From: a virus
IMG/VR virus record: IMGVR_UViG_3300048913_000097
Reading direction: 5' to 3' (one strand)
Length of the DNA stretch: 50,010 bases
The position numbers and the translations under genes are program-made. Positions 6,475 through 23,123 of the stretch are shown piece by piece. Below the pieces are notes generated by a model. That model was not told the DNA's origin. It did no database searches and saw only the letters and a list, made by a program, of their open reading frames with translations. Position 1 is the stretch's first letter, and the number at the start of each line of letters is the position of its first letter.

Positions 6475-6491
6475 ATGAGGTGACATCAACG

Positions 6492-7542: not shown

Positions 7543-7545
7543 GTG

Positions 7546-7574: not shown

Positions 7575-7606
7575 TCGGTTCACATTAACACAACGGAGCG
7601 ACACCC

Positions 7607-9559: not shown

Positions 9560-9560
9560 G

Positions 9561-9589
9561 TTGACGAACCCGTCATAGTGTCATATGCT
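9561..9589 (+). promoter_or_regulatory. Operator-promoter: TTGACG-N17-TATGCT, dyad 9562-9575
   Basis: TTGACGaacccgtcatagtgtcaTATGCT. The -35 begins 2 nt from the portal ATG on the other strand. Confidence 0.6.
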
Positions 9590-9626
9590 CCAGTGTATCT
9601 TAAACGTGGCACAGAGGGGAAACATC

Positions 9627-9986
9627 ATGGGTGACAACAACGTAACACTTGACAAGCGTGATCTGTTCGATGCGGTGCGATCAGCTATCAAAGACGCAAT
9701 GCTTGAACAGGGTAGCCGTGAAGACGGTGTCGAACTGTTCGAGGATGCTACGGATCGGACCAACAAGTGTTTATCGGAACTCTACGCTTCGTTACCTGAC
9801 GGGTTCACCGTCGGTCAGGTGTTGAAATGTGTAGCGATTCCTGATCGTCACGACGGGTATTTCACTATTGGTCGGGAATACATCGTTGTGAGCGTAGATC
9901 TAGACGATGACGAATTACCGCTTAAAATGACCTGTGATACAGCCATCACGCTGTGGTGTGAGGCCGAAGCATTCGTAGCGTCATAA
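9627..9986 (+). CDS. Hypothetical acidic protein, 119 aa
   Basis: GAGGGG 7 nt upstream of ATG 9627. The track ORF starts earlier, at 9585, without an RBS. The gene ends 6 nt inside the convergent TerL gene. Confidence 0.7.
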   Translation: MGDNNVTLDKRDLFDAVRSAIKDAMLEQGSREDGVELFEDATDRTNKCLSELYASLPDGFTVGQVLKCVAIPDRHDGYFTIGREYIVVSVDLDDDELPLKMTCDTAITLWCEAEAFVAS

Positions 9987-11384
9987 CATCGACCCAATCG
10001 GCACTTTCGCCAACATCCCCCGGCACGCAGCGATGATGAACGAGTCTGCGATGTTGGGGGATACGATCTCGCGCTTAGCCAGATCCTTCTTGCTCTCCAC
10101 CTTGACCTTCCCCGCGTTGTCGAAGTCACGCATGGGCGTCGACAGCTCATCAATCAGCTTGTTCAACAACTTCGCGTCACACTCACTCGACAGGCTGATC
10201 ATCTGATCAGCGGGGAACTGTCGACCCTTTGTCACGGCCAGATACGTGTTACGGAAGCGATCCGCTGCGAGCCACCATGCTTGGGCTTTCAGATTTGCGA
10301 AAAAGTCCTCGTTGGTGATCTTGGTGTCGCCGTAGTGACGTTTCGGGTCGCTCACCTTGCCGCCAGCGTTGAAACGGTAGTGACGGCGCCACAGCAACGA
10401 GTTCAGGTGAGACCCTGTACCAGCGCCTACCCCGATGCTGTCGTAACCGATCTGCGACGCCTGGAGACGTTCGGCGGTCATTTTCACACGGGCTGCCGAC
10501 TCTCGTAACTCATCCTGTCCGCCTTTCCACTCGTCGAGGTCGATGCAGACCATCCCATCCATTGTAGTGGTGGCGTTCTTGTCGTCCCCATCGTCCGCCA
10601 CGTCGTAACCAACGGTCTTGCCCCCGGTCCATGTACCCGACAGCGGTTTAACGATCTTGTGCGCGTCTACAGCGGCTTGGAGCCACGCACGTTTGATAAC
10701 GACACTGTCGTCGCTGTCGAACGGAACGCCTTTGTACGTGTGGATCGCGAGGTCGTAGTCTTCCTCAAACGCCGACTCGATATCAGCCAAGGCGGAAGGG
10801 GAGAGGAACGGGTTTTCGTCGTAATTGATTTGACGGATCAGCGTACCGCGTGGCGGCGAGATAACGAGACGCTTCCAGGCGAAGTCGGTAGCGAATCGGG
10901 CGTTGAACGAGAACCACATCTCGGCGCCATCGTTACGCATGACCGTCGGGCGCACCGTGTTGAACGCTGATTCAGTCATCAGGTGGGCTTCCTCCCACCA
11001 TGACACCGTTGCACCTTCAAACGATTTGATCTCGTCGACGTTGCGCGCCACACCGTAGAACCGGAACAGCGACCCGTTGGTCTTGTGCTCAATGGCGTCG
11101 GCGTAAATCTTGAAATTCTTGTCCAGCTCGAAATAGCTGATCTTGTCCTTCAACAACGTGTACACCGAGTCGGCGATACGGTTCTGGAACATCCGCAGGC
11201 ACAGGAAGCGTTCGGTGCTGAAGTTTGCCCGGGCTATGGCCACACCGGCCATGTCGTGGGACTTGGAGGACATCCGGCCACCGTGTAACACCCTGAACCG
11301 CACCGGGTCGCCTTCAGGCGTCTCACGGGTTGTCCAGAAATCACGGAGTGCGGGATTAAGAGTTGGACCCATAGAAATCGTCAA
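9981..11384 (-). CDS. terL: Terminase large subunit (PBSX/Terminase_3-like)
   Basis: 467 aa. Walker-A-like HGGRMSSKSH. The C-terminal nuclease half carries conserved acidic residues. The start overlaps TerS. Confidence 0.9.
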   Translation of the reverse strand: MTISMGPTLNPALRDFWTTRETPEGDPVRFRVLHGGRMSSKSHDMAGVAIARANFSTERFLCLRMFQNRIADSVYTLLKDKISYFELDKNFKIYADAIEHKTNGSLFRFYGVARNVDEIKSFEGATVSWWEEAHLMTESAFNTVRPTVMRNDGAEMWFSFNARFATDFAWKRLVISPPRGTLIRQINYDENPFLSPSALADIESAFEEDYDLAIHTYKGVPFDSDDSVVIKRAWLQAAVDAHKIVKPLSGTWTGGKTVGYDVADDGDDKNATTTMDGMVCIDLDEWKGGQDELRESAARVKMTAERLQASQIGYDSIGVGAGTGSHLNSLLWRRHYRFNAGGKVSDPKRHYGDTKITNEDFFANLKAQAWWLAADRFRNTYLAVTKGRQFPADQMISLSSECDAKLLNKLIDELSTPMRDFDNAGKVKVESKKDLAKREIVSPNIADSFIIAACRGMLAKVPIGSML

Positions 11385-11928
11385 GCCTTGCGCGGGTAGT
11401 TACTTCACCGGAAAGTTTAATCTCGGTTGGTTTGTTATAACCCATAAGTTCGGCAAGTTGTTTCATCGCTGCTCGACGGTCTGCCGGACTTGTAAGTTTG
11501 TATCTAACGCCGCCTTCCGGATCAATAATAACTTCCGCAACATCGGCAAGTTTGTCGGGGTTATTTAAGTCTGCGACTGTAACTTTCGTTAACGCCATAT
11601 CATTTAACAACAGCGCCATATCGTCACGGGACATAATCGCGTCGGCAAGCCGATTAGTTTGATTGGACTTTAACGAACTGACGAACTCGGCAACCTTTTG
11701 ATTTCCCATGATCTGACTGGCGCTCATGTCGGCACCAGCATCCGTCTTCGCCTTACCACCGGCACGACGATACGCAGCACGTTGAGTCAACCCTTCGAGT
11801 GTCCCGATCACCACGCCTTGCTGCAAACGAGTCAGGGCGTGGAATGCCGAGACCTGTTCGTCGCTCAGTTCGATGGTGCGATTGTCGATGGTGATCAGCA
11901 TTGCGGAAAGCCTTGCGGTTGAGGTCAC
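11356..11928 (-). CDS. terS: Terminase small subunit
   Basis: 190 aa immediately upstream of TerL. An HTH-like N-terminal region ...GLTQRAAYRRAGGKAKTDAGADMSASQIMGNQKVAEFV is typical of Terminase_2-type small subunits. Start is GTG 11928 or ATG 11901. Confidence 0.78.
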   Translation of the reverse strand: MTSTARLSAMLITIDNRTIELSDEQVSAFHALTRLQQGVVIGTLEGLTQRAAYRRAGGKAKTDAGADMSASQIMGNQKVAEFVSSLKSNQTNRLADAIMSRDDMALLLNDMALTKVTVADLNNPDKLADVAEVIIDPEGGVRYKLTSPADRRAAMKQLAELMGYNKPTEIKLSGEVTTRARLDDFYGSNS

Positions 11929-11973: not shown

Positions 11974-12000
11974 ATACCCCGTAAAACTGATTCGGGGTAT
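11974..12000 (-). promoter_or_regulatory. Leader inverted repeat ATACCCCG-11 nt-CGGGGTAT upstream of terS
   Basis: 8-bp arms and an 11-nt loop. It is the counterpart of 49160..49184. Confidence 0.55.
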
Positions 12001-12048
12001 TTATCGGGGTATGTCGTAAGTCCTTGTATTTACTACTAATATATATTT

Positions 12049-12260
12049 TATACCCCGATACCCCGAATAAATAATATTAGTAGTAGAGTAGTAATGTATA
12101 TGAGAATACATATCATTATATATTATATCGTATGGCTGGAGAGTGAGAGCGATACGGGGTATTCGGGTAAACCCGCTACAAGCCACGTAATCCGTGGCTT
12201 CCAGGCTACCCCGGATAGTTTGCGAGTTCCGGGGTACGGGGTATACCGGGGTACGGTTTT
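12049..12260. repeat. Dispersed repeat A (homologous to 49235..49432), ATACCCCG-box rich
   Basis: Three conserved blocks are shared with copy B. They are TATACCCCGATACCC..AATAAATAATATTAG, GAGAGTGAGA.CGAT.CGGGGTATTCGG.TAA and TACCCCGGATAGTTTGCGAGTT.CGGGGTACGGGGTAT. Confidence 0.9.
12122..12170 (-). promoter_or_regulatory. Candidate activator-dependent late promoter A (drives terS operon)
   Basis: Minus strand reads CCGAATACCCCGTATCGCTCTCAC-15 nt-TATAAT. There is no TTGACA-like -35. Copy B has identical geometry. Confidence 0.45.
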
Positions 12261-12261
12261 G

Positions 12262-12450
12262 AGCGAAAATAAATTATCTCGACACCAGTTAAATTAAAAA
12301 TGATTATTTTCTGGTCAAAAAGTAACCAAATTAAATTAAAAATAAATTACTGAAAATTAACTAACGTCGAGATAATTATAAATCGATCAATTTTTAACCA
12401 GATGTCAACCAAAAATGATCAAAAGTCGACAGCGATAAATTACTGAAATT
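12262..12450. other. AT-rich, repeat-dense non-coding island
   Basis: Hand count gives 48 G/C in 12261-12450 (about 25 percent). A 12-bp inverted repeat AATTATCTCGAC / GTCGAGATAATT lies at about 12272 and 12367. Direct repeats are TTAAATTAAAAAT (12289, 12330) and ATAAATTACTGAAA (12342, 12435). Confidence 0.8.
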
Positions 12451-12471
12451 AAAAAACCCGCCTAAGCGGGT
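12451..12471 (-). terminator. Intrinsic terminator ending the early minus-strand block
   Basis: Minus strand reads ACCCGC-ttag-GCGGGT followed by TTTTTT. The stem overlaps the stop codon of 12462..12953. Confidence 0.75.
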
Positions 12472-12953
12472 CGTTGCATCACGTAAACCTGTTCCCAGGT
12501 CGGCCATCCTTTGGTCACATTTGGACCCCTGTCGACCTTTTTGCGCTTCACCTTGACGGGTGGAACCCATTCGAATTTGATGTCGATTCCACGTACTTTC
12601 ATGGCGTATCGGATGCCCGAGTTCTGACTGGCGCCACAGAATCCAATCGCCCTGTTCACCTGATTCAAGCTATAGCCCTCTCGCTGCATTCTCAACAGAG
12701 CGTCTCTGAACGGCTCACCTGTATCGCGTACATAGTTGGCGACCACATTGGAACTACCCCACGGGTTGTTGTCTTGGTTAGCTCTCAGTAACGCTGTAAA
12801 GGCATTACGTTCCATACCGATAATTCGGGACGCATCAGCGCGTGTGAACCCCTGATGGTGTATATCGTGTACGAGTCGCCAGAATGGAATACCCCAGCGT
12901 TCAGCAACTCGTACACGTGTCCAACTTCGCTTGGTTTCAGTGGCGTTTAACAT
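12462..12953 (-). CDS. HTH DNA-binding protein, 163 aa (candidate late regulator)
   Basis: HTH-like segments (FTRADASRIIGMERNAFTALLR and YSLNQVNRAIG). It is the last gene before the terminator and late repeat A. Confidence 0.65.
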   Translation of the reverse strand: MLNATETKRSWTRVRVAERWGIPFWRLVHDIHHQGFTRADASRIIGMERNAFTALLRANQDNNPWGSSNVVANYVRDTGEPFRDALLRMQREGYSLNQVNRAIGFCGASQNSGIRYAMKVRGIDIKFEWVPPVKVKRKKVDRGPNVTKGWPTWEQVYVMQRPA

Positions 12954-13230
12954 AGCGTTCCAACTTCCTGAAGTCGATACCGGTTATACGACCCAACTCT
13001 TTCCAAGTTGCACCAGCGGCTTTAAGTCGTTTCATGCGTGCAAGTTCATACGACGTCAACAACCCCGTGGACTTACGCAATGGTGACTGATAACGCTTGT
13101 CGCGTTTGTAACCGGCTGCTGCAAGTGCGCGACGTACAAGATGCACCGTACTTCCGCAACGAGTCGCCACAGTGTGCCAGGGGAGCCCAGAGTTGCGTAA
13201 ATCGATAGCCCGGTCGGTGTCTATGCTCAT
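12937..13230 (-). CDS. Double-HTH DNA-binding protein, 97 aa
   Basis: Two HTH-like units: LPWHTVATRCGSTVHLVRRAL and ATWKELGRITGIDFRKLERYV. Confidence 0.65.
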   Translation of the reverse strand: MSIDTDRAIDLRNSGLPWHTVATRCGSTVHLVRRALAAAGYKRDKRYQSPLRKSTGLLTSYELARMKRLKAAGATWKELGRITGIDFRKLERYVKRH

Positions 13231-13892
13231 GGTGCCGCTCCAATCATCGCCGCGTAAACGTCACGGTAGTCCTGATGCTCGTCATCGCCACATAGCGTAT
13301 TGATTCCAGCCTCTACCATCGCTGGGGTCGGCCTGAGTGGTACAAGCTTGTAGCCCTCCGACACCGGCGCGGGCTGCGAGGTGTACAGCTTCGTGCCGAT
13401 ATGCAACGCTCCACTGTCGTGAATCACGATATCGAAAGCGGAGATTCTACGCTCGATAACTCCGCGCACTGTTGCCACCGGATCACCCTGCCCACCCCTC
13501 AGTCGCTCGATTTCCTTTCCGCGCTCTTCTGACGCATAGCTGACCTTGTTGTAGTTCGTGCAGACCTGCTCATGCGCCTCTTTCAGCCGCTCATTCTCCG
13601 CCGTCAGCCGTGCGATGGTGGCTTGCAGTTCGGCGAGTTCGGGCGGGGCGTCGAATACCGTTCTTGTGTGGTAGTCCTTGCGGGACTTGAGCGGGTCTAG
13701 CTCGTCTTTTTCAACATCCGACCAGCCTGCACCACCATCGCCCAAATAACGGACTTGATAAATCGGCATAGGCTGGCGCTCGACGACAGGGGCGGCGAGT
13801 AGGGTGCGCAGCTCTTCAGCCTCTTTGGGCCACATGCCAGCGCGCAGGATGCGCTCCAGCAACTCCCGCGATACTTCAATTTTACTGCTCAT
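13227..13892 (-). CDS. Hypothetical coiled-coil protein, 221 aa
   Basis: Long ORF with ATGA overlap to the next gene. The central segment ELAELQATIARLTAENERLKEAHE is a predicted coiled coil. Confidence 0.75.
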   Translation of the reverse strand: MSSKIEVSRELLERILRAGMWPKEAEELRTLLAAPVVERQPMPIYQVRYLGDGGAGWSDVEKDELDPLKSRKDYHTRTVFDAPPELAELQATIARLTAENERLKEAHEQVCTNYNKVSYASEERGKEIERLRGGQGDPVATVRGVIERRISAFDIVIHDSGALHIGTKLYTSQPAPVSEGYKLVPLRPTPAMVEAGINTLCGDDEHQDYRDVYAAMIGAAP

Positions 13893-14064
13893 TCTTAACC
13901 ACCCTCAAAGTTGGCTTCGTTTCTGCTGGCGGCATTTCCAAAGCCTCGTTAACCTGGCAGCCTTTGCCGAGTTTGTAAGCACAGACCAGGAACCATGCGG
14001 CGTTCTTTGGATCGTCTTCGATACGGTCTGCGAGCGCTTTGATGATCAACAGGTCATTGCTCAT
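13882..14064 (-). CDS. Hypothetical protein, 60 aa
   Basis: The start is set at ATG 14064, which overlaps the upstream stop (ATGA) and follows GGGAGCAACAAGCGA. Confidence 0.55.
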   Translation of the reverse strand: MSNDLLIIKALADRIEDDPKNAAWFLVCAYKLGKGCQVNEALEMPPAETKPTLRVVKNEQ

Positions 14065-14369
14065 TCGCTTGTTGCTCCCGCCAGCGGTACAAAATTTGGG
14101 CACGGTAGGCTTCCGCCACCTGCGTGGTAATCACCGCAGGCCAAGCACTTGAAGCGTGCCGGAGTGGTGCGCTGATTCTCCGTTTTCAGCGATTCCCGAG
14201 CCGCGTCTATTTTCTGTGATAGGCCAGTTATTGCAGACAGTGCAGCATCTAGGTTGGTAACAGCTTTGTGGCGCGTGAGGCATGTAACTTTGACGACCGT
14301 GATGCTTGACCTGCCGCTAGCGGTCCATGAGCCATCCGGATTTTGCTGAACTTCGATGATGTTGCTCAT
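14061..14369 (-). CDS. Hypothetical protein, 102 aa
   Basis: AAGGA 8 nt upstream. A C-terminal CxxC...C motif is present. Confidence 0.7.
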   Translation of the reverse strand: MSNIIEVQQNPDGSWTASGRSSITVVKVTCLTRHKAVTNLDAALSAITGLSQKIDAARESLKTENQRTTPARFKCLACGDYHAGGGSLPCPNFVPLAGATSE

Positions 14370-14380
14370 TCGCTTGATCC

Positions 14381-14542
14381 TTAATCCCAGTAGCTCATGT
14401 CTTCGTCAACGCCATTTTGTGGCGACATCTCCCACTCGATTGCGTAGGTTTCATACAGCGACTCGCACATATCCCAGCGGGCCCATCCGGCACGTTTATG
14501 CATGTAAAAATAGGCGCGGAGTATCCAGAAGAACTTTTTCAT
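14381..14542 (-). CDS. Hypothetical small protein, 53 aa
   Basis: Below the track cutoff. ATG 14542 overlaps the upstream stop (ATGA). It fills an otherwise empty 170-nt gap. Confidence 0.5.
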   Translation of the reverse strand: MKKFFWILRAYFYMHKRAGWARWDMCESLYETYAIEWEMSPQNGVDEDMSYWD

Positions 14543-14997
14543 TCGCTTGCTCCCAGTTCGGTGAGTTTGAGGGCGGCGCCACTGTTCTGGTACAGGTGAA
14601 CGATCAGATCGCTAAGGTATTTGCGCTTCATGCCAGGGCTTGCGTCCCTGACTTTTTCCGCCATCGTTAGCCCCTGGTTCAGGTGTTGTCGATAGACCGA
14701 GCAGTTGTCAGCACGGCTTTCTGCCAATTCCTTAAGCGACAACTTCGCTCGATTCAGTCGTTCGACTTCGGCCTCCAGCTCCGCATTCCGCTGCTCGGCG
14801 GCTGTCAGGCGCTGTTGCAGTTCGTAATTCTTTCCCTCGTTAAACCTCAAGGTAGCCTTATATCCATCCGACTCTTCCCGCAGCGCAGCCAGTTCGGATT
14901 TGGCGACGTCGAATTCGGAGGCAAGAATAAAATCAGCATTCCGGCCTTCTTGACCCAAGCCGCCAATAAAGAAGTTGAATCGCTTCACATCATCCAT
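14539..14997 (-). CDS. Hypothetical coiled-coil protein, 152 aa
   Basis: The start is set at ATG 14997 (GGAG 10 nt upstream). The track ORF extends to 15117 and would overlap the upstream gene. Confidence 0.65.
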   Translation of the reverse strand: MDDVKRFNFFIGGLGQEGRNADFILASEFDVAKSELAALREESDGYKATLRFNEGKNYELQQRLTAAEQRNAELEAEVERLNRAKLSLKELAESRADNCSVYRQHLNQGLTMAEKVRDASPGMKRKYLSDLIVHLYQNSGAALKLTELGASE

Positions 14998-15073
14998 CTG
15001 CAAATCTCCAAAATCATGTCGGGCAGGCCCGTGTTTAGTAGGATCGCCAGGAGGGCGATGTAATATTCGGGGT

Positions 15074-15295
15074 TCATGACCGACACCCGTCTTCCACTGC
15101 CACATAGCTGACCTCAAACGTCAGGAACGAACCATCCTCGAAGTAGTACACGTGGTGTTTCGACCCATGAGGGACGTCACGACGCGAGAACGATGTCACG
15201 GCTGCCCGGTGTGGGTCGCGTGACCGACGGATCGATTGTGCGATAGTCAGGTGAGCCGGGTCGTTGACTGAACAGGTATTCTGACGGCGGTCCAT
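15074..15295 (-). CDS. Hypothetical protein, 73 aa
   Basis: The track ATG at 15334 lies inside the spacer of promoter 15323..15351. The in-frame ATG at 15295 has GGAG 7 nt upstream and lies downstream of the predicted TSS. Confidence 0.6.
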   Translation of the reverse strand: MDRRQNTCSVNDPAHLTIAQSIRRSRDPHRAAVTSFSRRDVPHGSKHHVYYFEDGSFLTFEVSYVAVEDGCRS

Positions 15296-15322
15296 GGTGT
15301 CGCTCCAATGGTTGACGTGATA

Positions 15323-15351
15323 ATTATTATCCATAATGACGAGACCGTCAA
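15323..15351 (-). promoter_or_regulatory. Operator-promoter: TTGACG-N17-AATAAT, dyad 15337-15350
   Basis: Minus strand reads TTGACGgtctcgtcattatggatAATAAT, directly after terminator 15365..15392. Confidence 0.55.
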
Positions 15352-15364
15352 TACGCGGGCAAAT

Positions 15365-15392
15365 AAAAACCGCCGTTAGCGACGGGCGGTTT
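15365..15392 (-). terminator. Intrinsic terminator
   Basis: Minus strand reads ACCGCC...GGCGGT followed by TTTTTATTT. The stem overlaps the stop of 15376..15810. Confidence 0.65.
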
Positions 15393-15810
15393 CAAACTGT
15401 ATCGCCAGCTCACCCAGGCGACGAACGTCAGCCTTACTCGGGCCGTTGTAATAGGTCGTACACCCGGCACCAGCCATACGCTGCACCTCGGCGTTCTGGA
15501 GTAACGACGTGTCACGTGCCGCCTGACACTCGACAGTCTGTCCACCGACGTTCATACCGACCTGTTGCACCGTCACGAGACACACCTCAGCAATCGCCAC
15601 AGTTTGCCGTGTGAGTTCCCCGACGCGAGTACCGTCACAGTCCGTGGCACCAGCAGCACCTGTCACACAGAGAGCCAGTGCGAACACCACACCGCGTACT
15701 GCATTACCTGTCTTACACATTGGTCGATCCTCGTCGTCTACATCCCATTGATAGCCACACGCGTGGCAGTGGTACTGATCGCCATACCGGCGCGCCTTAC
15801 ACATGGTCAT
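15376..15810 (-). CDS. Hypothetical protein with N-terminal zinc ribbon and one TM-like segment
   Basis: CKARRYGDQYHCHACGYQW is followed by VVFALALCVTGAAGA. Start options are GTG 15813, ATG 15810 and ATG 15804. Confidence 0.68.
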   Translation of the reverse strand: MTMCKARRYGDQYHCHACGYQWDVDDEDRPMCKTGNAVRGVVFALALCVTGAAGATDCDGTRVGELTRQTVAIAEVCLVTVQQVGMNVGGQTVECQAARDTSLLQNAEVQRMAGAGCTTYYNGPSKADVRRLGELAIQFETARR

Positions 15811-15827
15811 CACCCTCGGTAGTTGGT

Positions 15828-15862
15828 ACTGACTCAGCCCCAGTTAAGGGGCTTGATGTGGG
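15828..15862 (-). promoter_or_regulatory. Conserved 35-nt hairpin element, copy 1 (sense on minus strand)
   Basis: The reverse complement cccacAtcaAGCCCCttaactGGGGCTGagtcagt matches 49781..49815 at 33/35 positions. It has a 6-bp stem, a 6-nt loop and no U-tract. Confidence 0.8.
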
Positions 15863-15871
15863 AGTGGTTGG

Positions 15872-16006
15872 TTAGGCTTCGCCTGCAATGATCCATGCTG
15901 CCCAGCGGCGCGCAGCCTTCAGGCAATACGCTTGTTCTTCAGTGTCGTTGCAGCCTTCGTTCAGGCACATAACAAAGTAGGCTAGGGTTCGGGCGTTATC
16001 ACTCAT
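15872..16006 (-). CDS. Hypothetical small protein, 44 aa
   Basis: Below the track cutoff. GGAG 9 nt upstream of ATG 16006. It is the first ORF after promoter 16041..16069. Confidence 0.45.
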   Translation of the reverse strand: MSDNARTLAYFVMCLNEGCNDTEEQAYCLKAARRWAAWIIAGEA

Positions 16007-16037
16007 CTCGTCTTACTCCGTTGTTCGTTTCGATGGG

Positions 16038-16235
16038 TTAATCATCTCGCGAAATGACGGACTCGTCAATATTTAATTTACGGTCCTGACGATTCGACCC
16101 GACCAACGGTAATTGCCCGTCCGATAAATGCCAGGGGATCTCGGTTTTACAGTCGGGACATTGCTTCATATTCAGCGAGCTATACCGTATCAGATCGGTA
16201 CACCCGCACTGCGGACACGACGTGTGAGCGTTCAC
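16038..16235 (-). CDS. Zinc-ribbon protein, 65 aa
   Basis: CPQCG...CPDC. GTG 16235 overlaps the upstream stop (GTGA), with GGAGG 5 nt upstream. Confidence 0.6.
   Translation of the reverse strand: MNAHTSCPQCGCTDLIRYSSLNMKQCPDCKTEIPWHLSDGQLPLVGSNRQDRKLNIDESVISRDD
16041..16069 (-). promoter_or_regulatory. Operator-promoter: TTGACG-N17-GATGAT, dyad 16055-16068
   Basis: Minus strand reads TTGACGagtccgtcatttcgcgaGATGAT. It lies within the last codons of 16038..16235. Confidence 0.5.
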
Positions 16236-16438
16236 TGACGCCTCCACATGCCGCCGATGAAATCGAGAGTCCCGGCGTAAACCTCGTCCTGTTCCTGCTC
16301 GGTCATTGTGCGACCCGGACACACAGTGGGTAACGAACCCTCACCACCTTTACATGTGGTACACGACGCAAGGCCACCCTCACAAAACTGACATCCGTTG
16401 CAGCCATCGGGGCATTTGTACAGAGTATGATTATTCAT
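16232..16438 (-). CDS. Cys-rich protein, 68 aa (CxxCxGxG-like)
   Basis: CPDGCNGCQFCEGG...CTTCKGGEG. ATG 16438 overlaps the upstream stop. Confidence 0.6.
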   Translation of the reverse strand: MNNHTLYKCPDGCNGCQFCEGGLASCTTCKGGEGSLPTVCPGRTMTEQEQDEVYAGTLDFIGGMWRRQ

Positions 16439-16649
16439 TATCGCGCCAATCCTTCCTGTTGGGGTTGTAGTTACATTGTCCCGAGCCCTGACGGTGGATG
16501 AACCAGTAACCATCACAGTGACAGGCCACACGTGAGTTCATCCATGCATCGAGTCGATACTCGCCGCCACATTTGCAACGACGAGACGTCGGCCACCGCG
16601 CCAGGGCTTTACGGGCGTCACACTTGCGACATCCGGTGTGGGTGCTCAT
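16431..16649 (-). CDS. Cys-rich protein, 72 aa
   Basis: CRKCD...CKCGG...CHCDG. ATGA overlap with the upstream gene. Confidence 0.62.
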   Translation of the reverse strand: MSTHTGCRKCDARKALARWPTSRRCKCGGEYRLDAWMNSRVACHCDGYWFIHRQGSGQCNYNPNRKDWRDNE

Positions 16650-16834
16650 GCCGGCGGTGGAATAATCGGCGGCGGTGACATTATTTCAAGTGCTTCGCTA
16701 ATCGCAACCAGAAAATCGTACTGACTCATCTCGTTAATCAGACGCTCGGCGTATCGATCAGGATCGCCCAATTCGTGCTTACGAGCCTGAAATTTCATCC
16801 AGTCGGTTACGGTTTCAAGCAGTGTGGTAGTCAT
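16646..16834 (-). CDS. Hypothetical protein, 62 aa
   Basis: Translationally coupled chain (ATGA overlaps on both sides). Confidence 0.6.
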   Translation of the reverse strand: MTTTLLETVTDWMKFQARKHELGDPDRYAERLINEMSQYDFLVAISEALEIMSPPPIIPPPA

Positions 16835-17106
16835 CGCCCCTGCCTCAAGTCAGCCAGTTTACGAGTGAGATCCATGCTCGCCCGGGTAGCAGCGGCGTGC
16901 TCACGTTGGGCGCCCGACATCTCGTACAGTGGGTCATTGCATTCAGAGCATTTACGCCGGTCATGCTCTACGCGGATAAACAGCATCGCACACGAGCCAC
17001 GCAGGCACTGTACCGGCCCTTTACGGGCCGCCCGCAACGCCTTGAGCGCTTTCATCGTGCGAGCCAGTTCGATAAGTGTTTGATCGATTGTATGGTCTTG
17101 GATCAT
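16831..17106 (-). CDS. Hypothetical protein, 91 aa
   Basis: Coupled chain. Contains C...CxxC. Confidence 0.62.
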   Translation of the reverse strand: MIQDHTIDQTLIELARTMKALKALRAARKGPVQCLRGSCAMLFIRVEHDRRKCSECNDPLYEMSGAQREHAAATRASMDLTRKLADLRQGR

Positions 17107-17357
17107 TTGAGTAGCTCCCGTATACGTGCAGTCATTTGTTTTCTGAGTTCTTGATTTGTCAAATATCCATCTTCACCGACCGTCTCAAATGCATGTCTCC
17201 ACACCTCTTCTGCCAACGCCTCGACCTCATCCTCTCGCACGAGTCCCACGCGCTTAACGTCGATCCAACCGTGACCGAATGGTGGCGGTTGGTGATTCCA
17301 CAGCAGCGCCACCTGACCCGGGTTGCAACACGTGTAAATAAACGCTACGGGTTTCAT
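17103..17357 (-). CDS. Hypothetical protein, 84 aa
   Basis: GGGAGTG upstream of the ATG. Coupled chain. Confidence 0.62.
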   Translation of the reverse strand: MKPVAFIYTCCNPGQVALLWNHQPPPFGHGWIDVKRVGLVREDEVEALAEEVWRHAFETVGEDGYLTNQELRKQMTARIRELLK

Positions 17358-17360
17358 CTG

Positions 17361-17504
17361 TCACACTCCCATCAGTACGAGAACGAACCCAACCCATCCG
17401 ACGAGCGCAACGCCGCGCATCACGTTGAGTCGAGCCTGGAGGATGTCCACGGTGGTCTCAGCCGCCCGTGCCCGGTTGTACCAAATCGCTGTGAGCTGTT
17501 TCAT
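17361..17504 (-). CDS. Hypothetical small membrane protein, 47 aa
   Basis: Below the track cutoff. ATG 17504 overlaps the upstream stop (ATGA). The C-terminus VALVGWVGFVLVLMGV is hydrophobic. Confidence 0.45.
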   Translation of the reverse strand: MKQLTAIWYNRARAAETTVDILQARLNVMRGVALVGWVGFVLVLMGV

Positions 17505-17695
17505 GGTGCAGATACCTCGTACGTGAACTGGCGAGCGGTGTCACCCATTACCCAACGTTCGGTCGCAACGTGTTTGCCGTCGGAGTAATAGCACGCGATC
17601 CCGTGGGTCCGACCAACGTCACGTCCCACAACCAAATCGTCTTCCGAGATTGCCCGGATAAACGCGTCGAACTCATCTTGTTTTACCTGTCGCAT
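17501..17695 (-). CDS. Hypothetical protein, 64 aa
   Basis: ATG 17695 has GGGAGCGGGG upstream. It is the first gene after promoter 17734..17762. Confidence 0.6.
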   Translation of the reverse strand: MRQVKQDEFDAFIRAISEDDLVVGRDVGRTHGIACYYSDGKHVATERWVMGDTARQFTYEVSAP

Positions 17696-17733
17696 CAGCC
17701 CCGCTCCCACGTGTGTTAATTGATGTCATGACC

Positions 17734-17762
17734 AGTATTAGCCATCCTGACGAGTCCGTCAA
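17734..17762 (-). promoter_or_regulatory. Operator-promoter: TTGACG-N17-AATACT, dyad 17748-17761
   Basis: Minus strand reads TTGACGgactcgtcaggatggctAATACT, directly after terminator 17775..17830. Confidence 0.55.
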
Positions 17763-17774
17763 TACCTCAGGAAT

Positions 17775-17830
17775 AAAAAGCCCCGTATCTGTCGCTCGGC
17801 CTCTGAGGCTGCCTGACATCAATGGGGCTT
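17775..17830 (-). terminator. Candidate terminator after the primase-helicase gene
   Basis: Minus strand reads AGCCCC...(39 nt with an internal GCCTC/GAGGC stem)...GGGGCT followed by TTTTTATT. Confidence 0.45.
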
Positions 17831-17952
17831 TGGTGTGTGACCGGTGCTGATCTCCGGTTTATTCAACTCTAGCCGCTCGGTCATTTCGATTGCTCGATTG
17901 CCGACCACTTTGAACTATGGCGTCGCGTATCAACCTACGCATTCACACCGCG

Positions 17953-20274
17953 CTATCCTACCACCGCCTGACTCAACGCCGCAATCGCCACGGGGTCACC
18001 CTGCGCCGCCTCGTAATGGCGTACCACCTCAGCACCCCCGACCAGATTGGCGTGGATATGACCCTGGCGGATGTACAGGCGCGGTTTACCGTTATCCATG
18101 AGGATGTGGTTATTTACGCGACCATCCTTCAACGCCGGATGCCAGTCGTAGCCGATGGATTTCATCAGGTCGCGACGTTTGCGTGGGGCTATGGCGCGAC
18201 CCATACGCAGCCGTTCAATCAGTGCATCAAGTGCCATGCTCGAGACCCAACCGCCCGCGAACCCTTGACGACCTTCCTCGATGCACTCGAGCACCTCTTG
18301 TTCCACCGCGCCCAGGCTCGCCTCGACTGCTTCACCGGTGGTACTGGTGTACGGGGCACGCTGACAACCTAACGTGGGGTTGAACTCTACGGGGATCGCG
18401 TAGGTGCTGAGAAAATGCGCCACGTGGGCATAACCGTCGCCACGCAGCCAGTCGTACAGGTCCGGGAAGTAGTTACCACTCATTCCGTCTCGGGCGATGT
18501 CCTCGACCTGCTGTTGTGCGGTGAAGAACACGCAAAACCGTCGGTCGTTGAGAGTCTTCTTGATGGCGTTGCGATGGTTACTGTTAAATATGAAGTTTGC
18601 GCAGTTCGCCATCATGACCTGATCTTGCTGCATGGCGCGCTTCGCCAACCGGTCCCCCGTGATCATGGGCTTCAGGATTTCCAACACTTCAGCTTTACTA
18701 TCCGGTACGTGAATATCCTCAACCCCCACGAATATCGTATTAAACAGCCACGAGTTGAATTTTTCACTGATTTCACTTGCTGGCGGCATATGGGTATAAC
18801 GCTGACCGACAGCGTATGCCACACAGCGGGTAATGAGAGTTTTACCATTGCCCTCACAACCCTGAAACAGTGGTGCCCATTGAAACTTATGCCCTGGATA
18901 CTGAACGATGGCAGCAGCGTAACTCAGAGCGATTTGTCGATCACGCTCGTTCGGTAGTAATTTAGCAAGGTGAGTCATAAACCGCGTCACGTCCCCCGGA
19001 ACCTTGCGCACATTCACCGGTACATACGTGTTTACCATCCTGCGACCTTCTTCTTCGATGATTGCTCCGGACGGATGTCGCGGGTCAAACACAGAGCCGT
19101 CAACTTTCGGGAATGTTACACCCTGGTTCTCAGTGAATGCCTCGAATGCCTTCTTTGTCGTTTTCTCCCCTGTATCATCCAGACTAAAAGTGAACCCCCC
19201 CATCAAGGCGTTGAATTGCTCCGATTTCAGCATTGTACCGTTTGGCATGAATACACGGTGCGCATCCGCCACGTACACGCACCCACGAAAGTGATCAACG
19301 ACTTGGGTGATTGGTAAGAATTGGAACCCGGCGCGAATGACCGGATCGACCACCGACGCCACGGGGGTCATTTCGATAGGTTTACCGACGCTATACCACG
19401 ATGTTTGGCGTGCAACGGCACCGCAGATAGTGCGATGCATGTAAGACTTATGCTTGTCCCACTTCGGGCGAACCATCGCGCTCATACGCATTAGACGATC
19501 AATGCGGTCACATTGGCCGCCCGTCCAGAATGCCAAACGCTGTGCCAAGCTGGCATCGGCTGACGATCCATCGTACCCACCGTCTTCGGCAGGCCATGAT
19601 TCGGTCAGTGCTTCGACGTTCTTTTCCCACAAATCCCGAAATGACGCTTTACCGCCTCCGAAGATGGACGCGATTGATTCACTTGCCAGGGCCTTTTCAA
19701 TGAGTCGCGCATCGTCCTGGATTGGACAGCTGTCGGGATGGGGTACAGTCGTCCATGTGGTCGGATTGACAGCGATTTCAGCGGGGAAGTATTGCGCCAC
19801 GGTCTGGTTAAAGGGGGTGTCACTCGGGTGCATCATATCGCCAGATGCACCCGTTCCCAGGCAGATGAAACGATCGTCGGTATAACACTCGATGTTGAGC
19901 GGGATATTTTTGCACCCGTGGTCAGGCATGTCACCAACCACCACGCCGAAGATGTGGAGACCTGTGCCACTGTTGGACGTTTCGGTCATGCATCCGGCGA
20001 ATCGAGTACATAACTCAATCGCAAGAGGGGACCAAGTTTGATCAGGTAGAAGGCACGCATCCAAGTCAATGCAGAACCTACCGTCACCATTGAGAATCGT
20101 GGCGGGGCGATATTCGGCGCCCAGTAGTGCGGCGCGATCAATCGCGTCAGCGTGCGACATACGGTCGGCGACGTGAAGGCTGACAACTTTACCTGATAGG
20201 TCGCACGGCATTTTTTCAGTTTTACCCGGACGATTGGTCGACGGGATAGTTTTGCAGATGATGAAATTATTCAT
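17953..20274 (-). CDS. Primase-polymerase / D5-P4-type helicase fusion
   Basis: The N-terminal region is prim-pol-like (...CIDLDAC...GTGLHIFG). The C-terminal part has Walker A GCEGNGKT and Walker B FVGVEDIH. The start is set at ATG 20274, which overlaps the upstream stop. Confidence 0.88.
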   Translation of the reverse strand: MNNFIICKTIPSTNRPGKTEKMPCDLSGKVVSLHVADRMSHADAIDRAALLGAEYRPATILNGDGRFCIDLDACLLPDQTWSPLAIELCTRFAGCMTETSNSGTGLHIFGVVVGDMPDHGCKNIPLNIECYTDDRFICLGTGASGDMMHPSDTPFNQTVAQYFPAEIAVNPTTWTTVPHPDSCPIQDDARLIEKALASESIASIFGGGKASFRDLWEKNVEALTESWPAEDGGYDGSSADASLAQRLAFWTGGQCDRIDRLMRMSAMVRPKWDKHKSYMHRTICGAVARQTSWYSVGKPIEMTPVASVVDPVIRAGFQFLPITQVVDHFRGCVYVADAHRVFMPNGTMLKSEQFNALMGGFTFSLDDTGEKTTKKAFEAFTENQGVTFPKVDGSVFDPRHPSGAIIEEEGRRMVNTYVPVNVRKVPGDVTRFMTHLAKLLPNERDRQIALSYAAAIVQYPGHKFQWAPLFQGCEGNGKTLITRCVAYAVGQRYTHMPPASEISEKFNSWLFNTIFVGVEDIHVPDSKAEVLEILKPMITGDRLAKRAMQQDQVMMANCANFIFNSNHRNAIKKTLNDRRFCVFFTAQQQVEDIARDGMSGNYFPDLYDWLRGDGYAHVAHFLSTYAIPVEFNPTLGCQRAPYTSTTGEAVEASLGAVEQEVLECIEEGRQGFAGGWVSSMALDALIERLRMGRAIAPRKRRDLMKSIGYDWHPALKDGRVNNHILMDNGKPRLYIRQGHIHANLVGGAEVVRHYEAAQGDPVAIAALSQAVVG

Positions 20275-21188
20275 GCCAGAAGTTCCAACCATGTGGTGAT
20301 ATCAGGATTCATTTGCCGCCACTCCGTTGCACCGTCGAAACCCTTCAGCCCGGCGGATGGGAATTGCGAATGAAATAGTTTTTCTAATGACGGAGGGATC
20401 GACCCATCATCACAGTGAATTTCACGGTGGACTGAGAATTTAAATGGGGTATTTCGCCTAAGTGTCATTTGGCGTTTGGTGGGGCTATTGCTGATCCCAA
20501 TCTTAATCATTTTCTCGTCATGGGAAATCAACGCATACAATGTCCCCGGATTCGATGGGTTATATCCGCTGGTTGCGCAACTTGGACACCTGTTACTTTC
20601 ACGAACGAAACCGCATATACCTACTTGCCACTCACCATGTATGTCGCAGCTCATGATCGCTCGACTGCGGGAATCAACATATTCACCGATCCACCCGATA
20701 AATTTGTAACCGTCGAGTAACGCAATGGTAGTTAATTGTGCCTCCCGTTCGTCACGGGATAATTTTTTATCACCGCAGTCTGGGCACCGTCGACCCTTAT
20801 TGATGAAGTTGTTCGGCGTGGTTAGCCAGTCACCATGTCTCGAACACCTGATAGTCATTTTACTGAACATGCCAGAATATTCGCCGCCCCAACCTATAAA
20901 AATAAGGTTGGTTTGCGACATCAATGCTGTAATTTTTGATTCGCAAACATCACGAGGCATCCGAGTCTGAACACCCCTCACCTCGCAGGCGCACGAACGG
21001 CAACGAGCTCCCTTGTGGTAGAAGCCGCCGACCGACGACGTCCAGTCACCATGTTTCACGCAGTTAAATATTGCGCGACTTTTACTATTCTTGTATTCGT
21101 CGACAAAACCTACAAACTTGTACCCATCAGCTAAAGCAGCGGCAGACAACTGCACCGCCCGATCCGATGTCGAGATTTTCTTAACCAT
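20271..21188 (-). CDS. T5orf172 / GIY-YIG-like homing-endonuclease-type protein with three zinc-ribbon repeats
   Basis: It has three tandem modules of about 55 aa with the pattern GYKF(V/I)G..EY..S.S....C..HG.W......F.....RC..C. The C-terminus GTLYALISHDEKMIKIGISNSPTKRQMTL...GATEW resembles the T5orf172 domain. Confidence 0.78.
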   Translation of the reverse strand: MVKKISTSDRAVQLSAAALADGYKFVGFVDEYKNSKSRAIFNCVKHGDWTSSVGGFYHKGARCRSCACEVRGVQTRMPRDVCESKITALMSQTNLIFIGWGGEYSGMFSKMTIRCSRHGDWLTTPNNFINKGRRCPDCGDKKLSRDEREAQLTTIALLDGYKFIGWIGEYVDSRSRAIMSCDIHGEWQVGICGFVRESNRCPSCATSGYNPSNPGTLYALISHDEKMIKIGISNSPTKRQMTLRRNTPFKFSVHREIHCDDGSIPPSLEKLFHSQFPSAGLKGFDGATEWRQMNPDITTWLELLA

Positions 21189-21220
21189 GCTATTTAGCCC
21201 CTGCTAAGCGTGGCGATACA

Positions 21221-21505
21221 TCAAAGCAAGGTTTGCAATGCTCGAACCCTGAGAGCTTTCGGGGCTTTCATCGCCGTCGAATCACCTTCGGCCATTCCCG
21301 CCGCCAAGATGTCAAGCTGTTCCGATTCAATGGCGCGTTTCATGATTGCGGTCTTGAGATCATCCATCTTTCCATAGTGGAGGTTCACAGTACCACCCGC
21401 CACACCCGCACGCTCTGCAATCGCATCCCGTCTGATACCGCGATACCCACACTCGCACGCCAGGGTGAACGCTGCGTCGAGGATCTTGTCTTTCAAATGA
21501 CTCAT
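21221..21505 (-). CDS. Mini TetR-family HTH protein (94 aa, DNA-binding domain only)
   Basis: ILDAAFTLACECGYRGIRRDAIAERAGVAGGTVNLHYGKMDDLKTAIM matches the TetR N-terminal HTH pattern. There is no room for a ligand-binding domain. Confidence 0.7.
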   Translation of the reverse strand: MSHLKDKILDAAFTLACECGYRGIRRDAIAERAGVAGGTVNLHYGKMDDLKTAIMKRAIESEQLDILAAGMAEGDSTAMKAPKALRVRALQTLL

Positions 21506-21522
21506 ATGTGTGTCCCACTCTT

Positions 21523-21552
21523 AATATATTGGCATTGGTGCCAGTGTGTCAC
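21523..21552 (-). promoter_or_regulatory. Candidate promoter with TGGCA-N4-TGCCA dyad in the spacer, upstream of the TetR-like gene
   Basis: Minus strand reads GTGACA-N18-TATATT. A perfect dyad TGGCAttggTGCCA lies at 21530-21543. Confidence 0.4.
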
Positions 21553-22298
21553 CCGCTGACAGGCGCGTCAATGTACGCCGCTATAAACTCTTTTGCCGCC
21601 GGGGCACAGATGGCATTCCCGTAGGCGCGGATTGCCCCCACTCGCCCGGGAGACCCATCAGCCAACGGGAGTGTTCCGGGTTCAATTGGCCTCCGGCTGC
21701 CGTCCCGTCCCCGTATAACCACACAGTCCGACCAAGCAGTGAGTTTATCGGTACGTTTGCCGACGCTGATTTCCCATCCTTCCAGTCTCTCGTCGTCGGC
21801 GTCGGCCACCCAGAACAATCGGTCTCGGATGTGCGGCGCACCGACGCCCGCAGACGGGAACGCGACTGCCCCGAAGGCGTAACCCATAGCTTCCACGTCA
21901 GCGTGTACAAGGTCGATCCAAGGTCCGACAGCCTTACTCGCAACCTGCTCTCCAAAGATGACTGGAGGGCGGCGCTGGAGGATGAGCCATTCGAAGGAGG
22001 GCCAGAGGTGCCGCTCGTCAGCAAACCCCACTCCCTCGCCTGCCTGGCTGAAAGGTTGGCAGGGGCAAGAGCCTGTCCATACTGGTCTATCGTCAGGCCA
22101 CCCAGCTTGTCGTAGTGCGTATGACCACACGCCAATTCCGGCGAAGAAATGGCACTGAGTGAATTCTCGCAAGTCGTCGGGTCTGACATCTTCGATACTA
22201 CGTTCATCTACTTCCCCTGGTGTGATGTGTCCGGCGGCGATCAGATTCCGTAACCATTGGGCCGAGAACGGATCGATTTCATTGTAATAAGCAGCCAT
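21549..22298 (-). CDS. DNA (cytosine-5) methyltransferase
   Basis: Motifs: FFAGIGVWS (I), PCQPFSQAG (IV), GEQV (VI), HIRDRLFWV (VIII-like), GNAICAPAA (X). Start is ATG 22298 or GTG 22307. Confidence 0.88.
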
Positions 22299-22328
22299 GA
22301 ATGTCACTCGTGATTGGTGCGTGACGCC

Positions 22329-22357
22329 ATTGTGACGACGTATGACGACATCGTCAA
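22329..22357 (-). promoter_or_regulatory. Operator-promoter: TTGACG-N17-CACAAT, dyad 22343-22356
   Basis: Minus strand reads TTGACGatgtcgtcatacgtcgtCACAAT. The TGA stop of the VRR-NUC gene lies inside TTGACG. Confidence 0.5.
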
Positions 22358-22839
22358 TCGAATGACCCCGGTCCGGTTACAAATTTAAAGTCGCCACCGA
22401 GCATCGTGACGATCTGCCCGAACCGAAGCTGTGCAACTTCCCGTTCCGTTCCCGAGTAAACCCACCCCTCGGGCTTGCACTCACGGGCGGCGAATTGTGC
22501 AATGGTAGTACCAACCATCTCAGGCGTGATGAGGCGCGGCAGTGGTCCGATGAGATCGCTCGACTTGACCTTCTTGTTCATCGCCGCCGAGTCGTTACAC
22601 AGCCCCCAGCGCGTACCGGGCGACGGTGGATGTTTGGCATCGTAAGCCCCGTTGTTATTGCGCCACCCACGCCCGCCGAGTTCCGACCATTCCTGTCGCA
22701 CGGCATTCTGTACCGCCGCCTCAGACTTCGGTTTAGCCGATGTGGATTCATGCGACTCACCGACCCCCCACATATCGTACAGCTCGGCGAGCGCTGCATG
22801 AGAGACACCGTTACGGATGGCCCATTGGATAAGTGTCAT
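22354..22839 (-). CDS. VRR-NUC domain nuclease
   Basis: EAAVQNAVRQEW...GWRNNNG...SSDLIG...ARECKPEGW...AQLRFG follows the D...E.K pattern of VRR-NUC. Confidence 0.78.
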   Translation of the reverse strand: MTLIQWAIRNGVSHAALAELYDMWGVGESHESTSAKPKSEAAVQNAVRQEWSELGGRGWRNNNGAYDAKHPPSPGTRWGLCNDSAAMNKKVKSSDLIGPLPRLITPEMVGTTIAQFAARECKPEGWVYSGTEREVAQLRFGQIVTMLGGDFKFVTGPGSFD

Positions 22840-23123
22840 GAGCGAACCGCCGTTGCGCCAGCCGATTCTACTGCATCACTGCACTCGCGTAGTGTTTCAC
22901 CACGTGTTGGGGCAGCTCGCGGGAATGCGCGCAACGGGAATTCCGGAGGTAATGTGACTACCACACCTCGTAATTGATTCCACGCTGACAAGTCCCCGTC
23001 ATCCCCCGGAGTCGGCCCAAATGCTCCACAACCGTTACATTCGATCCATTGCGTTACATCGAGATCCTTACTGCCGCAGAAAGGACAAGGATTCAGTTCG
23101 TGCTTGTTCTTGTGGTTGATCAT
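22836..23123 (-). CDS. Lar-like zinc-finger protein (possible restriction alleviation)
   Basis: LNPCPFCGSKDL...ECNGCGAFGP...WNQLR resembles Lar-family proteins from memory. Confidence 0.55.
   Translation of the reverse strand: MINHKNKHELNPCPFCGSKDLDVTQWIECNGCGAFGPTPGDDGDLSAWNQLRGVVVTLPPEFPLRAFPRAAPTRGETLRECSDAVESAGATAVRS

Follow-up and report, generated by a model that had tools for sequence, protein, structure and literature searches.

A repeated phage hairpin element as the probable 3' boundary of an exchangeable leader-ORF-hairpin cassette

The virus record IMGVR_UViG_3300048913_000097 contains a 35-nt hairpin element at positions 15828-15862 of the window, i.e. the whole stretch of 50,010 nt that was analysed. 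A second copy is located at 49781-49815 on the opposite strand. Which role does a hairpin play that is present twice in one genome, each time in the sense orientation of its local transcription unit? A preliminary description of this DNA compared the layout with the nutL/nutR boxB sites and mentioned a pair of recombination sites as a further option. From the comparison of carrier loci we propose that the element is probably the core of the 3' module of a leader-ORF-hairpin cassette (ORF, open reading frame), the reported hairpin representing the 3' boundary of this cassette. The cassette architecture and its exchange between phages, both deduced from sequence comparisons, are highly likely.

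The hairpin module and its leader

Comparison of the reverse complement of 15828-15862 with the plus strand at 49781-49815 confirmed the identity of 33/35 nucleotides that had been noted before. A 21-nt core (TCAAGCCCCTTAACTGGGGCT) occurs exactly twice in the window, at 15836-15856 (-) and 49787-49807 (+), and is absent from 100 dinucleotide-preserving shuffles even if up to three mismatches are tolerated. With a covariance model built on 71 related copies of the hairpin module, copy 1 was recovered at 15820-15877 (-) with 66.3 bits (E=1e-16) and copy 2 at 49766-49823 (+) with 59.2 bits (E=1e-14). No third copy was found in the window by this model with filters off, the next-best match having 10 bits. 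Since the model matches span about 58 nt, the conserved block comprises about 58 nt rather than 35.

Scanning IMG/VR with the exact hairpin 20-mer yielded 68 contigs, from which a DNA consensus of about 55 nt was derived (TAA-CCAACCCCGCCCACCTCA-AGCCCC-TTAAYT-GGGGCT-TTGCCAGTACCA). At the RNA level the 3' module reads UAA-CCAACCCCGCCCACCUCA-AGCCCC-UUAACU-GGGGCU-UUGCCAGUACCA, where CCAACCCCGCCCACCUCA is a C-rich spacer and (U)UUGCCAGUACCA the tail. This module includes the stop codon of the upstream ORF, and a ribosome-binding site (RBS) and a start codon are usually located 20-45 nt beyond. About 160-600 nt 5' of the hairpin lies a second conserved block, a leader of about 30 nt with the consensus (CAUCG)AAACGAACAACGGAGCAAGACGAGAUG, or (CAUCG)AAACGAACAACGGAGCAAGACGAG-AUG if written with the start codon. 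One small ORF is bracketed between the two blocks. The leader 12-mer CGAACAACGGAG was detected with at most one mismatch within 1.1 kb upstream of the hairpin in 58 of the 68 hairpin-found contigs, at a median distance of 224 nt. A reciprocal scan by the leader alone resulted in 68 loci, 40 of which were new, and most of the new loci have a hairpin 21 nt past the first stop codon. The sigma70-like promoters directly 5' of the leader are mutually unrelated in sequence. Copy number per genome is one or two: the cultured phages PfAn1 and Psp6 have one copy each, and several IMG/VR contigs carry two loci. The carrier loci that were compared are denoted by L-numbers (e.g. L002, L024, L118), L121 being PfAn1 and L122 Psp6.

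Both copies in the window lie in units of this type, in agreement with the sense orientation on opposite strands and the parallel context of the preliminary description: a sigma70-like promoter is followed by the leader, an ORF of 44 or 40 codons, the hairpin and a further gene. Unit 1 starts with the promoter TTGACG-17 nt-GATGAT at 16041-16069 (-), the -35 hexamer of which is located inside the palindrome TGACGAGTCCGTCA. The cassette 1 leader, or translation-initiation region, extends over 16007-16036 (-) with the sequence CCAUCGAAACGAACAACGGAGUAAGACGAG; AUG follows directly, and the leader would form the 5' boundary of the mobile unit. The cargo is an ORFan of 44 aa, ORF44 (MSDNARTLAYFVMCLNEGCNDTEEQAYCLKAARRWAAWIIAGEA, 15872-16006 (-)). 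The 3' module at 15820-15877 (-), which contains 15828-15862, consists of the UAA stop (15874-15872), the C-rich spacer, the hairpin AGCCCC-UUAACU-GGGGCU (15836-15853 (-)), which is followed by GAGU and has no U tract, and the tail GAGUCAGUACCAAC. The second cistron at 15376-15804 (-) starts with the ATG at 15804, encodes 142 aa with an N-terminal CxxC zinc-ribbon-like motif and is linked to the phage backbone; it is identical in L035. Unit 1 ends with a canonical intrinsic terminator (CCGTCGCTAACGGCGG + UUUUUAUUUG, 15370-15385 (-)), immediately followed by the next promoter at 15351-15323.

In unit 2 the promoter TTGACG-17 nt-AATACT is located at 49586-49614 (+), with the palindrome TGACGAACCCGTCA. 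The cassette 2 leader (CUACUGAAACGAACAACGGAGCAAGAUGAG, 49619-49648 (+)) again directly precedes AUG. It shares the motif GAAACGAACAACGGAG with the cassette 1 leader, found between promoter and small ORF at 16016-16031 (-) and 49624-49639 (+). The cargo is the ORFan ORF40 (40 aa, MKYVIGVNDPRPSKRPARGMQWVRMKGGPLDGQWVQRPRT, 49649-49771 (+)). The 3' module (49766-49823 (+), containing 49781-49815) comprises the UGA stop at 49769-49771, the C-rich spacer, the hairpin AGCCCC-UUAACU-GGGGCU at 49790-49807 (+), followed by AAGU without a U tract, and the tail AAGUCAGUGCC. The second cistron of 188 aa starts with the ATG at 49891, which equals position 8 of the circular genome, and extends over 8-574 (+). 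The end of the unit at 574 is convergent with the head-gene module. Both window promoters are part of the phage backbone and lie outside the conserved cassette. The distance from the -10 hexamer to the hairpin is 179 nt for copy 1 and 167 nt for copy 2, slightly shorter than the 180-190 nt given before. The two "early operons" exist as units but are not long, since each contains the small ORF and one further gene.

Small CxxC-rich (zinc-ribbon-like) ORFs are found on both sides of cassette 1, at 16038-16649 (-) and 15376-15804 (-). One CxxC-rich ORF near this cassette has a weak Pfam match to Zn_ribbon_IS1595, which is under the cut-off.

Exchange and spread of the cassette

Direct indications for exchange come from pairs of loci that share either the surroundings or the cargo. 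The identity of window copy 1 and L035 amounts to 95.5% up to the ATG and to 92% downstream of the ORF. Between ATG and stop codon it is 32% and the sequences (44-aa vs 61-aa ORFs) are unalignable. Window copy 2 and L024 show a like pattern, with ORFs of 40 aa vs 58 aa. The reverse situation is found in L024 and L038: their flanks are unrelated, but leader, ORF and 3' module form a block of 243 nt with 98% identity, which begins exactly at CGAACAACGGAG and ends at GAGTCAGTG. Likewise, the ORF44 cassette is present in L118, where it adjoins a cro-like helix-turn-helix (HTH) gene and a DnaB gene, and the identity of window and L118 begins at CCATCGAAACG, within the cassette 1 leader, and ends at CAGTACCAA. 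In an all-against-all comparison, 25 pairs had a similar downstream flank and different cargo, and 33 pairs had similar cargo and unrelated flanks. Judging from these boundaries, the mobile unit consists of leader, ORF and 3' module.

The breakpoints fall within the two conserved blocks, so that the simplest mechanism is homologous recombination of co-infecting phages. Leader and 3' module would then serve as portable homology arms, and recombination between them would swap the cargo and keep the expression signals. Repeated exchange would in addition homogenise the arms across lineages. In the window phage the exchange could be performed by its exonuclease and its Gp2.5-like single-strand annealing protein; PfAn1 encodes RecT.

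The distribution of the element is broad with respect to phage type and narrow with respect to host. When the copy 1 locus (window 15400-16400) was compared with cultured phages by blastn, unexpected matches to Pseudomonas phage phiPto-bp6g and "Streptomyces" phage SF3 were obtained. In total, the leader-hairpin bracket is present in about 100 viral contigs. Cultured carriers are PfAn1, phiPto-bp6g, DDSR119, Psp6, vB_PseuGesM_254, PPSC2, PHB09, MR14, Torfinnsbu and others, with hosts from the P. fluorescens/putida/syringae/tolaasii group; SF3 is an exception, as are a Serratia and a Klebsiella phage with weak partial matches. PfAn1 is podovirus-like by annotation (internal virion proteins, RecT, an Arc-like repressor and a cro/C1-type gene; no tape measure or sheath) and Psp6 is a siphovirus, so that together with the window phage the carriers cover all three tail morphotypes. 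At E<1e-4, not a single protein is shared by PfAn1 and Psp6, and the three complete carrier genomes (window, PfAn1 and Psp6) lack any protein family in common. The carrier loci have a G+C content between 40 and 63%. An origin from the host (host terminator, REP element or prophage) was rejected: in 185,579 species genomes the hairpin 20-mer was found in only three contigs of metagenome-assembled genomes (MAGs), two of them with ordinary-looking terminators and one with a full cassette on a contig that is probably of phage origin. This near-absence indicates that the element is phage-borne.

Two carriers deserve a separate remark. The recorded host of SF3 (KT221034, about 58,050-58,120; L002/L058) is Streptomyces flavovirens, and this phage has a complete cassette with the leader at L002 2607, two ORFs and the hairpin at 3018, the stem of which contains one G-G mismatch. 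This points either to a questionable host record or to a cassette that spans very distant hosts. In Psp6 a csrA (carbon storage regulator) homologue is located two genes downstream of the cassette (L122 4508-4753), and in the cassette leader the Shine-Dalgarno sequence is overlapped by an inexact CsrA-like motif (ACAnnGGA). A leader motif for CsrA/RsmA or Hfq/Crc was not adopted, the resemblance being inexact.

The cargo is diverse. First ORFs after the leader comprise 89 distinct sequences of 25-130 aa in 71 clusters, mostly singletons, and no functional annotation was found for any of them; all are ORFans. ORF44 and ORF40 have no PHROG, Pfam or phage tblastn match. The ORF44 protein is encoded also in the unrelated backbone of L118, with four nucleotide differences. 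All four are synonymous, which indicates that ORF44 encodes a genuine protein and is subject to purifying selection. ORF40, whose coding status is less secure, has a high content of Arg, Pro and Gly, is missing from the called genes of the public protein collection and may be a decayed or non-coding filler of the slot. With 54-55% G+C, the cargo is not atypical for the genome.

The hairpin as a proposed transcript signal and competing explanations

The earlier account of a 6-bp GC stem, a UUAACU loop and a missing U tract is correct for both copies. For the RNA hairpin AGCCCC/GGGGCU with this loop, a folding energy of -12.6 to -13.4 kcal/mol was calculated (z about -2.4). The stem corresponds to that of an intrinsic terminator (6-7 bp with five G-C pairs, about -13 kcal/mol, 21 nt past the stop codon). 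The U tract is missing in the window, where the copies continue with GAGUCAGU and AAGUCAGU. Hence the statement that the element is not a classical terminator holds for the window phage, and a terminator scan flagged neither copy.

In other phages the sequence after the stem differs. Among 97 distinct copies, 21 have a full U tract (at least five U among the 8 nt that follow the stem), and two of these 21 have a gene start within 45 nt. Three or four U (consensus CUUUGCCA) were found in 50 copies, 38 with a gene start within 45 nt, and two or fewer in 26 copies, including both of the window, 12 with such a gene start. In L085, L092, L097 and L099 other hairpins occupy the same position between the same flanks: L085 has AAGCCCGC-CATG-TGCGGGCTT, the stems of L097 and L099 are longer and followed by full U tracts, and L092 contains a degenerate copy followed by a new terminator. 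The hairpin module is truncated in L109 and L112. Ordinary terminators (AAAGCCCC...GGGGCTTTT) are present elsewhere on carrier contigs. Because of the U-tract correlation and the replacement hairpins, we favour, with moderate confidence, a hairpin that is derived from a terminator and whose efficiency is set by the U tract. The window copies would then be non-terminating hairpins between cistrons.

This suggests the following course of expression. Host RNA polymerase would start at the phage promoter, and translation of the cargo would be driven by the unstructured A/C-rich leader, in which GGAG precedes the AUG by 9 nt. A hairpin with full U tract would end the unit, making the cassette a stand-alone moron; with UUUG after the hairpin, termination is probably leaky; with GAGU or AAGU, as in the window copies, read-through into one more gene is expected. 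In the window the hairpin would be at most a pause site or a structure protecting 3' ends. The transcription and termination behaviour is inferred, like the recombination pathway, the early timing and a role of the cargo in host takeover or anti-defence; the two-part architecture, its occurrence in several phage lineages and absence from host genomes, the diverse cargo, the breakpoints within the arms and the relation between U tract and spacing to the next gene are seen directly in the comparisons.

Several points weigh against the proposed terminator-derived, exchangeable cassette. Termination, read-through and timing are deduced from the sequence. Stem-preserving covariation in relatives had been suggested as a check; the element is indeed present in relatives, but covariation is not significant (92.6% of cells paired vs 92.4% in shuffles), in a weak test, as the alignment was collected by stem similarity and the stem hardly varies in it. 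Qualitative support for the stem comes from one compensatory CG-to-GC change, from G-U wobbles and from the four replacement hairpins. Furthermore, the degree of conservation in the loop (UUAAYU in 71 copies), in the C-rich spacer and in the GCCAGUACCA tail is similar to that of the stem. Such conservation is not obviously needed by a plain terminator or a passive arm, and sequence-specific recognition by a host factor could account for it. Some of the flank comparisons among all loci are limited by truncated loci, and ORF40 is doubtful as a real gene. Finally, homologous recombination alone falls short of explaining the first entry of unrelated ORFs between identical arms.

Accessory signals were also considered. 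Complementarity of leader and hairpin, likeness to sigma54 or IHF sites and a promoter within the tail were dropped by eye, as spacing or sequence did not fit. A subfamily with the tail GAGTCAGTGCAAG (L021, L029, L037, L038, L059, L066, L098 and L111) has a second small hairpin 20-45 nt after the first, with a U-rich loop and covarying stems (GATCA/TGATC, TAGGA/TCCTA, GCAG/CTGC and GACA/TGTC). A homologous downstream gene starting with M(T/R)SPTK is present in five loci (L021, L033, L037, L066 and L098). The second hairpin of this subfamily is probably a leader structure of the downstream gene.

Among the alternatives, the one that survives best, although it is unlikely, regards the 3' module mainly as an RNA signal for a Pseudomonas host factor and the exchange of cassettes as a by-product. 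Candidates are a processing or 3'-stabilising site for RNase E/RNase III, Rho loading at the C-rich, G-poor spacer combined with a pause hairpin, or a site for an RNA-binding protein of the Hfq or ProQ kind. Loop, C-rich spacer and GCCAGUACCA tail are near-invariant over 40-63% G+C and in unrelated lineages, and since no phage protein is common to the carriers, a recognising factor would be that of the host; nearly all cultured carriers in fact grow on the P. fluorescens/putida/syringae group. However, L005, L072 and L113 lack the C-rich spacer, which is therefore dispensable, and in the six loci named above the hairpin is either truncated or has another one in its place. Rfam 15 gave no match at the gathering threshold in the whole window, and permissive local scans gave a single chance match (E=0.87, 16.8 bits vs 38 required). 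Pairing of the CACCUC tract as an anti-Shine-Dalgarno mimic that would mask the RBS of the downstream gene (translational coupling) was rejected as well, because the predicted pairing was lower than with shuffled upstream sequences (0.63 vs 0.81, p=0.003). The coincidence of breakpoints with the conserved blocks is more directly explained by recombination.

An antitermination site is very improbable, be it nut-like, with a boxB hairpin and an N-type protein, or put-like, with an RNA acting on the polymerase. The boxB hairpin of lambda has a 5-bp stem and a GNRA-like pentaloop, is bound by the arginine-rich motif of N and is preceded a few nt 5' by boxA. The put sites of HK022 are RNAs of about 65-70 nt with two conserved stem-loops. 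Common to nutL/nutR, putL/putR and the present element is an RNA hairpin, transcribed in the sense direction, at two promoter-proximal positions. In both window units the element follows shortly after a sigma70-type promoter, a terminator (15385-15370) is found after unit 1, and the loop sequence is conserved. In PfAn1 (L121 29875-30452) the cassette is the first in an operon diverging from a cro/C1-type gene and so takes the place of nutL and N in lambda, a likeness of position only. The details of the RNA speak against both types. The 22 nt 5' of the hairpin (CCAACCACUCCCACAUCA and CAGCCCUACCCACCUCA) are unlike boxA (CGCUCUUA-like), and so is the consensus CCAACCCCGCCCACCUCA; the loop is the hexaloop UUAACU and not a GNRA-like pentaloop; and one short conserved hairpin with flanks predicted to be unpaired contrasts with the two stem-loops of put. 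A candidate family for an N-like protein is absent from the shared set of the three genomes, and the adjacent ORF differs nearly everywhere. The 21/97 copies with full U tract are themselves terminators that end their own unit, which is the opposite of antitermination. In the window there is one downstream gene per unit to be reached, a new promoter follows directly after the terminator, and read-through from unit 2 would be antisense to the head genes. The nutL/nutR boxB analogy of the preliminary description is not supported.

Equally poor is the case for a bracket that is the substrate of a dedicated capture process, either site-specific at the folded hairpin, as in attC, or by RNA-templated insertion. 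Such a process would account for 71 unrelated cargo families between identical arms with embedded start and stop codons, which is hard to achieve by homologous recombination alone, and within the module it is the hairpin that varies least. The attC sites of integrons consist of imperfect inverted repeats with extrahelical bases, are conserved in structure rather than sequence and are used by an integrase of the tyrosine recombinase type. Integron cassettes resemble the present ones in that one variable ORF from a diverse ORFan cargo is combined with a conserved 3' site that forms a hairpin. In contrast, the stem described here is short (6-7 bp), perfect, without attC-type bulges and conserved in sequence, the cassette has its own ribosome-binding leader, and no arrays are formed. 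No integrase or reverse transcriptase was detected among the 20 largest window ORFs in a screen that was not exhaustive, and no protein is common to all carriers. In some loci, e.g. L118 and L013, the leader does not begin at the predicted transcription start, which argues against a transcript-defined unit.

An inverting pair of recombination sites can practically be dismissed: the copies lie on opposite strands and resemble each other over about 58 nt plus about 30 nt, but PfAn1 and Psp6 have a single copy each, inversion would part the head and tail modules from their promoters, and the related contigs L010 and L119 are collinear with the window over the compared stretches. Of the recombination role considered earlier at the DNA level, what stands is that of a homology arm for cassette swapping.

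Known systems, significance and genome context

Among the described systems, PeSLs and morons come closest to the exchangeable cassette. PeSLs (promoter-early stem-loops) are mobile regulatory cassettes of T4-type phages (PMC2839356, Arbiol et al. 2010; PMC4122927, Comeau et al. 2014). They are single composite motifs of a stem-loop terminator followed by an early sigma70 promoter, occur as many repeats in the hyperplastic regions of one T4-like genome and are lineage-specific; mini-circles have been described for them (PMC2839356, PMC4122927). In both systems short conserved expression signals and a terminator-type stem-loop surround small ORFans, and the motifs serve as sites of homologous exchange and mark the breakpoints of whole-ORF replacement among related phages. 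The present cassette differs by two distinct blocks (leader and 3' hairpin module), by exclusion of the promoter and by one or two copies per genome. Moreover, one and the same sequence is found in unrelated phages that infect one host genus, whether myo-, sipho- or podovirus-like. By analogy, the element appears to work like a PeSL, combining regulatory sequence and recombination linker around ORFans, without being a member of the PeSL family. A literature search with the conserved strings and with keywords found no earlier description, the PeSL papers being the sole analogue.

The cassette also has features of morons (Juhala et al. 2000; Hendrix), extra small genes between backbone genes with their own sigma70 promoter and a factor-independent terminator. 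It shares with them the position of an extra small gene between backbone genes, the combination of a promoter-like site with an ORF and the variability among related phages. However, morons are defined singly and have no common conserved flanks, while the arms of the present cassette are near-identical throughout about 100 contigs. The window hairpins have no U tract and a second gene belongs to each unit, whereas the cassette stands alone in the phages with U tracts.

If this interpretation is right, two short sequences constitute a recombination-ready slot in which unrelated Pseudomonas phages trade single small genes. This would offer a concrete mechanism and a testable substrate for the spread of ORFan accessory genes among otherwise dissimilar phage lineages. 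Searching for leader plus 3' module ("guilt by flank") retrieves the cargo directly, here 71 families of small proteins, which are probably expressed early and are candidates for host-takeover or anti-defence functions. Leader, hairpin and U-tract variants are potential ready-made and host-validated expression parts for the engineering of Pseudomonas phages. A more speculative and rather doubtful extension is a host-genus-wide "expression slot", in which loop, spacer and tail are recognised by a host or phage machinery, site-specific or RNA-templated, that captures single ORFs and moves them across unrelated phage families. Such a slot would be the phage counterpart of integron cassettes, would feed a pool of early ORFans, probably for host takeover or anti-defence, and would possibly be a cradle of new genes.

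The first 127 nt of the window (1-127) are identical to the last 127 nt (49884-50010). This terminal repeat indicates a circularised complete genome of 49,883 bp, which has a G+C content of 54.8%. According to PHROG matches, head and packaging genes are located at 581-11,928 (-), small genes, primase and helicase at about 12,000-24,865 (-), exonuclease, Gp2.5-like annealing protein, DNA polymerase and lysin at 25,537-33,804 (+), and a sheathed-tail module at 34,153-49,121 (-). By its gene content the phage is a myovirus that is not T4-like. Its closest cultured relatives are the Edwardsiella phages PEi21/MSW-3 and Klebsiella phages, with about 73-75% nucleotide identity in terminase and portal. 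Two genes of the HNH / endonuclease VII type, at 5561-6616 (-) in the head module and at 20271-21188 (-) in the replication module, may encode homing endonucleases.

The promoters of both units belong to a larger set. The sequence TTGACG-N4-CGTCA, in which the -35 hexamer is part of a 14-bp palindrome, has 13 exact sites on both strands and in every module (2787, 6461, 7546, 9561, 15337, 16055, 17748, 22343, 25475, 27834, 31885, 38613 and 49586). With at most one mismatch, 34 matches were found vs 2.25 expected. This looks like a class of promoters/operators that is specific to the window phage, perhaps the target of a regulator of phage origin. Two further repeats are located upstream of unit 2. 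An array of at least 10 copies of CGGGGTA / TACCCCG in both orientations occupies 49160-49430, in the intergenic region from which tail module and cassette 2 diverge. It resembles iterons and could be an origin or the binding array of a regulator. TGGTCAC / GTGACTA repeats at 49476-49575, just 5' of the unit 2 promoter, are kept in the related contig L024 and look like operators.

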